Assembly: GCA_042090305.1 (NCBI GenBank)
Contig: JBELJQ010000006.1
Location: 1 to 61,177, forward strand
Source of the DNA: Pelagibacteraceae bacterium
Lineage (GTDB): Bacteria; Pseudomonadota; Alphaproteobacteria; Methylaequorales; Methylaequoraceae
Direction of reading: 5' to 3'
Length of the DNA stretch: 61,177 bases
Below are positions 10,418-10,990 of this stretch, piece after piece. The position numbers and the translations under genes were made by a program. Position 1 is the first letter of the stretch. Each line of letters opens with the position of its first letter. The notes beneath the pieces were generated by a model. It saw only the letters and a program-made list of their open reading frames with translations. It made no database searches and was not told the DNA's origin.

Positions 10418-10480
10418 GAACAACCTTGAAAGCCATCCGCCACCATTAGCATTTTGCGATGGCTTCATGTTGGATGAACT
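10397..10480 (-). other. In-frame extension beyond the fae UGA (SSSNMKPSQNANGGGWLSRLFSFFKGN*), candidate readthrough membrane-targeting tail; alternatively a 23-aa sORF from ATG 10468
   Basis: 27 open codons in the fae frame, ending TAA at 10399-10397 directly before the terminator; 35 of 84 nt are G/C. Confidence 0.6.
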
Positions 10481-10990
10481 TCACTTGGCTGCAAAAGGGT
10501 GTTCAGCTGAATCTTTTTGAGAAACAACTTCACTAGGCTTAGGATCGCCTGAAACTGCTCTCTCGATTGCTTCTTTTGTGGCTGTGTAATTATATTCTTG
10601 GATTTTTTTATCATCCTCTGCTAACCAGTGAATAAATACACCAACAGAAATAAATAGGTTGTCTGCTTCATCTTCTGGAATCGTACCTTCGGCAACACAA
10701 TCCATTACAGCTTTTGCAACACCGTGTTGTGCGGGTCCAAACATTTGAACAGCTTGTTTTGCACCCTTGATTGTTACTTTATTAAACATACAAGTTGCTG
10801 GTTTTGTCATTAAATTTGGCGCCACAACTGCAAGAAGTGCAGTAAAACCATCCTTATTGTTTGTTAAAGCATTAGCAAATGATGTTTCAGCAGGAGTACC
10901 TCTTGGACCGATGATTAAATCAATATGTGCGACTTCATTGCCGTCACCTACAAGTGATTCTCCAACAAGCATTTTTGTAATTTTAGCCAT
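10481..10990 (-). CDS. fae: Formaldehyde-activating enzyme
   Basis: [77 protein letters not shown]. Confidence 0.98.

Follow-up and report, generated by a model that had tools for sequence, protein, structure and literature searches.

A conserved hairpin after the stop codon of alphaproteobacterial fae as a candidate signal for programmed readthrough

The DNA analysed here is a stretch of 61,177 nucleotides (nt) from a Pelagibacteraceae bacterium (GenBank assembly GCA_042090305.1, contig JBELJQ010000006.1, positions 1 to 61,177 of the forward strand), henceforth the window, and comes from the 1.5 Mb genome of a marine alphaproteobacterium with 29.7% G+C and an estimated completeness of 88%. 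On its minus strand lies fae, the gene of the formaldehyde-activating enzyme (Fae), and the fae mRNA carries a hairpin a few nucleotides beyond its UGA stop codon. Our reading, to which we give a probability of about two in three, is that this hairpin is a conserved structure of the fae sense-strand mRNA and part of a programmed stop-codon readthrough signal that would furnish a fraction of the Fae protein with a tail. Comparison of related loci reveals that the helix is conserved, covarying and strand-specific, that the tail evolves as protein-coding sequence, always in the fae frame and often without a start codon, and that the stop codon is always of the leaky type. From these patterns we infer the occurrence of readthrough, its stimulation by the hairpin, the residue inserted and the role of the tail.

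The fae stop codon is followed by an open frame and a hairpin

The fae coding sequence is complete, with 169 codons for amino acids and a product that covers nearly the whole of the Pfam family Fae (PF08714, E 8e-71, profile positions 1-158 of 159), while residues 2-168 match the solved Fae chain 1y5y_A (169 amino acids). Including the stop, the open reading frame (ORF) spans 10481-10990. Along the mRNA, the UGA (10483-10481) is followed by the spacer AGUUCAUC (10480-10473), the stem (10472-10421) and then UUCUCAUUUUUC, and the frame of fae continues beyond the UGA for 27 open codons, which encode a polar linker and then W-L-S-R-L-F-S-F-F-K.

An earlier note on this DNA, made from the letters alone, had described an 8-nt spacer and a 52-nt hairpin at 10472-10421 (CAAC-A-UGA-AGCCAUC-GC / 15-nt loop / GC-G-GAUGGCU-U-UCA-AG-GUUG), and the centroid fold of the 52-nt piece agrees with it. 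The internal AUG (10468-10466) is buried, as had been proposed, being within the 5' arm with its U and G paired, and a distinct terminator hairpin does lie downstream (10396-10364; 13 pairs, loop of 7, U-rich tail, -20 kcal/mol, z -6.3). Two details required revision. Of the stem model, the 14-pair basal helix (10458-10472 with 10421-10437) is conserved but the two apical GC/GC pairs are not, being paired in 31% of cells. The statement that no U tract adjoins the stem holds only in part: UUCUCAUUUUUC stands directly 3' of it, but this run encodes F-S-F-F and was not flagged by a terminator scan.

In isolation, the 52-nt hairpin folds with -17.0 kcal/mol (z -2.56), and 1 of 200 shuffled sequences did equally well; the downstream terminator hairpin is much stronger (z -6.34, 0 of 200 shuffles). 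Folding energy alone does not set the stem apart from chance. Its conservation across relatives, rather than its thermodynamics, does so.

The helix is conserved and covaries in the marine clade

We collected all fae loci whose product shares at least 86% identity with that of the window, 30 of them from related genomes, 14 from genome contigs and 24 from metagenomes, the genome sources being uncultured marine Alphaproteobacteria or metagenome-assembled and single-amplified genomes labelled 'Rickettsiales'. UGA was the fae stop in all 68 of these marine-clade loci, and the entire arrangement of UGA, 12 nt to the AUG, stem and in-frame tail of about 27 codons was kept in 67 of them.

The 47 distinct marine-clade sequences free of N were aligned (alignment A1). 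The 14 basal pairs were standard in 656 of 658 cells (99.7% for a 13-pair helix and 100% for one further pair), while sliding the 3' partners by 1-3 columns as a control left 25-49% paired. In two of the pairs both partners change. Pair 37-66 is UA in 37 sequences, AU in 3, UG in 2, CG, GC and GU in 1 each and another combination in 2; pair 33-70 is GC in 40, AU in 4 and GU in 3. None of 500 shuffles reached the observed covariation score; we give this less weight than the pair counts because the shuffle control ignores relatedness. The alignment also holds 49 G-U cells, which would be C-A mismatches if read on the opposite strand, and selection therefore acts on the fae mRNA strand and not on the convergent transcript.

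Codon choice points to a constraint on the RNA in addition to that of coding. Third positions have identities of 0.43-0.79 in the last four fae codons and of 0.47-0.77 in the five codons past the stem; those paired in the stem are at 0.91-1.00 or covary, and a bulged third position varies. Ser-Arg-Leu in the 3' arm is written TCA AGG TTG in 47 of 47 sequences, while the Ser codon that comes next varies (TCA 24, TCT 12, TCC 5, TCG 3). In this genome AGG accounts for a minority of Arg codons (17%) and TTG for a minority of Leu codons (11%). Residues past the stem are conserved with synonymous variation, and insertions and deletions in the linker comprise whole codons, multiples of three, both here and in the second alignment described below.

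Two other foldings were considered with these sequences. An H-type pseudoknot, in which the A-rich loop would pair with the U-rich run past the stem, beat shuffled loops in 1 of the 47 sequences, with a mean energy weaker than that of the shuffles. An alternative helix between UCAUCC of the spacer and GGAUGG is paired in 94%, yet it is broken in six sequences exactly where the main helix compensates, and it is not favoured.

Tail, frame and hairpin recur across Alphaproteobacteria

Sampling was widened to the class, with 401 genomes, to the orders surrounding three genomes that bear the tail and to the remaining database loci, so that 271 fae loci were examined in total, 242 of which are distinct over the first 120 nt and 117 of which are distinct and bear a tail. 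Outside the marine clade, a homologous tail follows 68 distinct fae sequences and is absent from 124. It consists of a linker and then G-[W/L]-[L/F]-x-[K/R]-L with a further hydrophobic and basic pattern. With the marine clade included, the tails are 17-45 residues long among the sequences examined and come in roughly eleven types from at least nine coded families, ranging from the streamlined marine clade at 29.7% G+C to G+C-rich relatives that include named Hansschlegelia and Methylopila strains. In the order around genome G407, 51 of 60 fae matches had it. Fae loci that are clearly betaproteobacterial or gammaproteobacterial by their record titles had plain terminators in its place, and in a search for the same motif after other genes, fae was the single one among 1514 ORFs of at least 100 amino acids that had it.

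The reading frame of the tail is fixed. Among the 242 distinct downstream sequences, the tail motif was found in frame 0 in 117, in frame +1 in none and in frame +2 in one, and frame 0 is open from the fae stop to the motif in every one of the 117. Codons immediately after the stop also differ synonymously while their amino acids are conserved (starts of the S-G-N-H-P and Q-S-R kinds; for example, locus L207 against L211).

A hairpin recurs along with the tail, although its arms share no sequence across lineages. In minimum-energy folds of lineage representatives, a long helix joins the post-stop segment to the codons of the conserved motif. The median length of the best arm duplex is 14 pairs for marine-clade tails and 17 for those of other lineages. 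In 115 of the 117 distinct tails its end falls 0 to +3 nt from the codon of the conserved Leu, and its distance from the stop ranges from 3 to 14 nt; in the other Alphaproteobacteria the hairpin begins 3-11 nt past the stop, most often at 8. With 13 non-cognate partners for comparison, the cognate arm pair came out on top for 8 of 14 representatives, and its mean rank was about 2. For 39 distinct sequences of the 'GLLQRL' type (alignment A2), a 13-pair helix of a different sequence was 89% paired, against 23-52% in the slid control. One of its pairs is CG in 26 sequences and UA in 13 with zero mismatches, and three more change on both sides. None of 500 shuffles reached the A2 covariation score; the 'further pair types' measure was no higher than in the shuffles.

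Covariation across homologues, which the earlier note had named as one check on its proposal, is thus present as compensatory changes in both alignments. Its inference of a recoding signal superimposed on a coding tail, with the geometry of viral stimulators, is supported further by UGA or UAG and the fae frame in 117 of 117 sequences, by the 8-nt spacer in 72 of 117, and by 45 of the 68 non-marine tails having no in-frame ATG, GTG or TTG between stop and motif.

Some genomes have two fae copies (loci L233 and L261 in G550, L285 and L287 in G643, L282 and L284 in G530), one with tail and hairpin and the other without a tail or with a degenerate one. These are possibly specialised paralogues.

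The stop codon is of the leaky type and a true stop in this genome

The 117 tail-bearing sequences end fae with UGA (83) or UAG (34) and never with UAA, and the next base is A in 77, G in 32, C in 8 and U in 0, counts that come from related sequences and hence are not independent; in the tail-less distinct sequences, UAA (35), UAG (26) and UGA (64) all occur.

Three lines of evidence bear on the meaning of UGA in the window's genome. Release factor 2 (RF2) is present (466 bits against a cut-off of 370), tRNA-Trp has a CCA anticodon and a normal anticodon stem of 5 base pairs (bp), and none of the genome's 27 tRNAs is a stop-reading suppressor; UGA is therefore a true stop. Reassignment of UGA to Trp (code 4) is ruled out by RF2, by the CCA tRNA-Trp and by the 264 of 1271 long ORFs that end in TGA (781 end in TAA), and a tRNA-Trp with a 4-bp anticodon stem, which was also considered, is ruled out by the 5 bp found. 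Among 15 database proteins from short contigs (P0002-P0016, 137-197 amino acids), 14 have W at the position of the fae stop and continue into the tail. The W probably reflects gene calling under a code with UGA as Trp and not constitutive fusions through a sense codon. P0016 has a different junction, which resembles two compensating frame changes.

Searches for selenocysteine machinery gave no match for selA in this 88% complete genome, so that absence is not proven, and with the same limit the best scores for selB and selD were far under their cut-offs (126.8 bits against 242 and 45.5 against 125, respectively). The best matches of the tRNA-Sec model reached 46.2 bits against 47 and are tRNA-Ser according to ARAGORN. 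Rfam returned 0 matches at the gathering threshold across the whole window, and the five matches with E <= 10 in 10340-10530 (mir-5881 on both strands, mir-15, RT-8 and a prion pseudoknot) include no family of selenocysteine insertion sequences (SECIS).

The predicted tail product

In an AlphaFold2 model built on 34 read-through translations, the Fae fold was followed by a disordered segment at 170-185, with a predicted local distance difference test (pLDDT) score of about 50, and a helix at 186-194 that was of low confidence and undocked. The pattern HHPPHHPHHP is conserved in the predicted helix, whose probable binding site would be the cytoplasmic membrane or else a partner protein. C-terminal amphipathic helices target peripheral membrane proteins of bacteria such as MinD and FtsA to the membrane, and the Fae tail shares with them a flexible linker, a helix of about ten residues, the HHPPHHPHHP pattern and basic residues. 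Those helices, in contrast, are constitutive parts of their proteins. Because the hydrophobic moment of the tail is modest (see below), a membrane-binding role like that of MinD or FtsA is put forward as a hypothesis only.

Transcripts and gene neighborhood

The stretch was found in 20 sequencing runs from 12 studies, 18 of which are recorded as RNA (seawater RNA libraries). Two of the studies supply metatranscriptome unitigs that run across the stem as far as 10210-10277; unitigs cannot reveal RNA 3' ends, strand or level, and neither uncovered parts nor a shared break at 10425 count as evidence. That break, at which unitigs of two metatranscriptome studies end, is at the 3' foot of the stem, and it likely reflects strain branching in the variable end of the tail, although it may be a processing site.

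The window holds a gene cluster of the tetrahydromethanopterin pathway. Within 7716-12731, fae is located amid Hydantoinase_A-like, CitG-like and RimK-like genes and two ATP-grasp genes, as is typical of tetrahydromethanopterin cofactor synthesis. A convergent plus-strand gene, His_biosynth-like (9686-10417), ends at 10417, so that the stem lies between two convergent genes. The terminator hairpin falls within the last 18 codons of this convergent gene, and one palindrome (10364-10396) may thus double as coding sequence and as terminator of both transcripts. The features are collected in Table 1.

Table 1. Coordinates of fae and of the elements downstream of its stop codon (positions in the window)
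Feature	Position	Strand	Basis
fae coding sequence, canonical product of 169 amino acids	10484..10990	-	Pfam PF08714; match to 1y5y_A
UGA stop of fae, proposed readthrough site	10481..10483	-	UGA in 68/68 marine-clade loci
8-nt spacer AGUUCAUC between stop and helix; opening codons of the tail	10473..10480	-	UCAUCC 98-100% conserved in alignment A1
5' arm of the conserved helix, CAAC-A-UGA-AGCCAUC; holds in-frame AUG 10466-10468	10458..10472	-	fold and A1 pairing
Loop region including two non-conserved apical GC pairs; codes for the variable linker	10438..10457	-	apical pairing 31%; indels in multiples of 3
3' arm of the conserved helix, GAUGGCU-U-UCA-AG-GUUG; codes for (G)WLSRL	10421..10437	-	TCA, AGG, TTG invariant in 47/47
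In-frame 27-codon tail: polar linker, then W-L-S-R-L-F-S-F-F-K helix (predicted)	10400..10480	-	open frame, synonymous variation, AlphaFold2
UAA stop of the tail	10397..10399	-	sequence reading
Intrinsic-terminator-like hairpin of the fae transcript with U-rich run	10364..10396	-	13 pairs, 5 GC, loop 7; z -6.34

Weighing the proposed readthrough signal against other explanations

Several observations weigh against a programmed readthrough signal. We know of no hairpin-stimulated near-cognate readthrough in bacteria. In a 91-nt context the stability of the hairpin is unremarkable, with a z of -1.24 and 27 of 200 shuffles equally good, and only 69 of 117 tails form an arm duplex better than those of shuffled 5' arms (p <= 0.05), in a test that is weak in G+C-rich sequence. 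Regarding the product, the pLDDT of the tail is about 50, and its hydrophobic moment is modest, with a median of 0.57 against 0.46 for shuffled tails and maximal values significantly above the shuffles in only 21 of 105 tails. Metagenome locus L134, with a Fae 93% identical to that of the window, has lost the tail: the AUG is missing, an in-frame TAA follows after 10 codons and what is left of the hairpin is a remnant of the 3' arm. It is a natural loss variant. Working strains of Methylobacterium extorquens carried C-terminally FLAG-tagged fae alleles, according to an excerpt of PMC4868122, so that the long form may be dispensable in the laboratory. Lastly, some tails contain a potential start codon of their own. 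The in-frame AUG is retained in 67 of 67 marine tails, making a separate start possible in that clade, and in 23 of the 68 non-marine tails, from G+C-rich relatives (L236-L286), a Met in the same frame precedes the helix by 3-4 residues.

A first alternative, which we consider unlikely, is that the hairpin serves the RNA itself, for instance in the stability or processing of the fae mRNA, a very abundant message, at its 3' end, and that the tail, if made at all, is owed to UGA or UAG leaking without any help from the structure. Bacterial mRNAs are commonly protected by hairpins close to their 3' end, and the two unitigs from two studies that stop at 10425 do so near the 3' foot of the stem. 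Yet other unitigs bridge the stem, and unitigs are unable to show RNA ends. Stability would also not need what is found across lineages, namely a helix whose start is tied to the stop codon, at 8 nt in most tails, by arms of unrelated sequence, and a distinct, strong terminator hairpin is already provided 25 nt beyond.

Improbable as well, in our judgment, is that the marine-clade tail is a separate small protein of 23 residues. Ribosomes would begin it at the AUG 12 nt past the stop, either de novo or on reinitiating after termination, and the hairpin would hide this AUG and thereby regulate or couple its translation. The universal presence of the AUG in marine tails, its placement in the 5' arm of the stem and the Met ahead of the helix in a third of other tails, the 23 mentioned above, are as this proposal would have it, and where a Met precedes the helix a separately initiated peptide may exist. 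The 45 non-marine tails of the same architecture that have no start codon argue against it, however, as does the conservation of the fae frame in all 117 distinct tails, which a separate ORF would not require. Furthermore, the four codons from stop to AUG code for small polar residues only and never for a stop, and no purine-rich run resembling a Shine-Dalgarno sequence occurs within 12 nt upstream of the AUG. As we understand ribosome geometry, a ribosome halted on the UGA would leave a helix 8 nt downstream still closed. A start-masking hairpin for coupling requires a separate downstream ORF, and the 117 tails as a set do not provide one, though the marine clade itself has the AUG.

It is very improbable that the stem is an intrinsic terminator or attenuator, either of fae or of the convergent plus-strand gene. 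Its location between convergent genes and the U-rich run 3' of it on the minus strand fit such a role, but it was unflagged by the scan, having a loop of at least 15 nt and a weak base, and G+C-rich relatives keep the helix without the U run, which where present is conserved as Phe and Ser codons. The G-U cells exclude selection on the plus strand, and RNA unitigs bridge the stem, although these cannot prove that ends are absent. We rejected it on the scan, the G+C-rich relatives and the bridging unitigs.

Finally, the SECIS option of the earlier note, with UGA encoding selenocysteine, falls away to a negligible probability: like a bacterial SECIS, the fae hairpin stands shortly after an in-frame UGA within translated sequence of a bacterium, but the selenocysteine genes were not found (genome 88% complete), no Rfam match covers the site, the UGA lies past the complete Fae fold and catalytic domain and not at an active site, and relatives use UAG in 34 of 117 cases and therefore exclude it.

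A proposed mechanism

If the hairpin is a readthrough signal, it would act while the fae UGA occupies the ribosomal A site, when the base of the helix, 8 nt downstream, would be at the mouth of the mRNA channel. A helix base at the mRNA entrance is the geometry of known recoding stimulators and would favor near-cognate decoding over release. In a fraction of ribosomes, a near-cognate tRNA would take the place of RF2, most likely tRNA-Trp(CCA) in the case of UGA, and the 27 further codons would be decoded. The product would be Fae extended by a linker that is polar and flexible and by a short amphipathic helix, W-L-S-R-L-F-S-F-F-K, which would probably attach to the cytoplasmic membrane or to a partner protein.

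More tentatively, and at less than even odds, the recoding may be ancient across the sampled alphaproteobacterial lineages, with a hairpin 6-8 nt past UGA or UAG and an ordinary near-cognate tRNA, without a dedicated factor. The tail, gained by a set fraction of Fae subunits, might then anchor the pentameric enzyme on the inner side of the cytoplasmic membrane, at the point of entry of formaldehyde that the periplasmic oxidation of methanol or methylamine releases.

Relation to known recoding systems

Programmed readthrough stimulated by downstream RNA is textbook knowledge for viruses with RNA genomes, and some genes of animals and fungi are also known to use it. Extended 3' stem-loops of the alphavirus and Colorado tick fever virus type and that of Drosophila hdc stimulate it, and murine leukemia virus (MuLV) has a pseudoknot about 8 nt after its UAG; Firth et al. 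2011 is cited for readthrough-stimulating 3' stem-loops in an excerpt of the recoding review PMC7026636. The fae arrangement shares with the viral and animal stem-loops a leaky UGA or UAG that is followed, at a distance of about 8 nt, by a long, imperfect, covarying helix, a conserved in-frame coding sequence that overlaps the structure and, presumably, two isoforms per mRNA. In contrast to them, this candidate signal belongs to a bacterial host, in which RF1 and RF2 terminate on 70S ribosomes, and to the chromosomal gene of a core metabolic enzyme; its extension is a mere 17-45 residues, and no pseudoknot is supported.

On bacterial ribosomes, natural stops are read through in coliphage Q-beta, to make the A1 protein, and in Bacillus subtilis SacB, to our knowledge with no dependence on a conserved downstream hairpin. 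These two are the only bacterial-system readthrough entries in Table 1 of PMC7026636, and the excerpt of that review gives a single example of a bacterial cellular gene with readthrough. Like them, fae would yield a minor product extended at its C-terminus; unlike fae tails, neither is known to be conserved across a whole bacterial class. Full-text literature searches found no report of readthrough of fae, and in an excerpt of PMC12403871 'readthrough' occurs in the transcriptional sense only.

Dual localization by readthrough is listed in Table 1 of PMC7026636 for peroxisomal LDHB and MDH1 in mammals and for PGK and GAPDH in fungi. The parallel with fae would be that an abundant soluble metabolic enzyme has a minor fraction with a short C-terminal targeting peptide, which in Fae is a predicted amphipathic helix, with the membrane or a partner as its putative target, and not the tripeptide of a type 1 peroxisomal targeting signal (PTS1).

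Implications

If the more tentative proposal of an ancient recoding event is correct, fae would be the first case of structure-stimulated stop-codon readthrough, other than for selenocysteine, in a bacterial chromosomal gene, and would offer a bacterial counterpart to the dual localization of enzymes by readthrough. The signal belongs to a gene that ranks among the most strongly expressed in methylotrophs, and would be a natural, genetically tractable model for how structure in an mRNA tips the balance between release and near-cognate decoding on 70S ribosomes. For annotation, the consequence would be that gene callers cut the product short or, as appears to happen on short A+T-rich contigs, take UGA for Trp. 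For the organisms themselves, our reading implies an unannotated Fae isoform, possibly one that places formaldehyde capture at the membrane.

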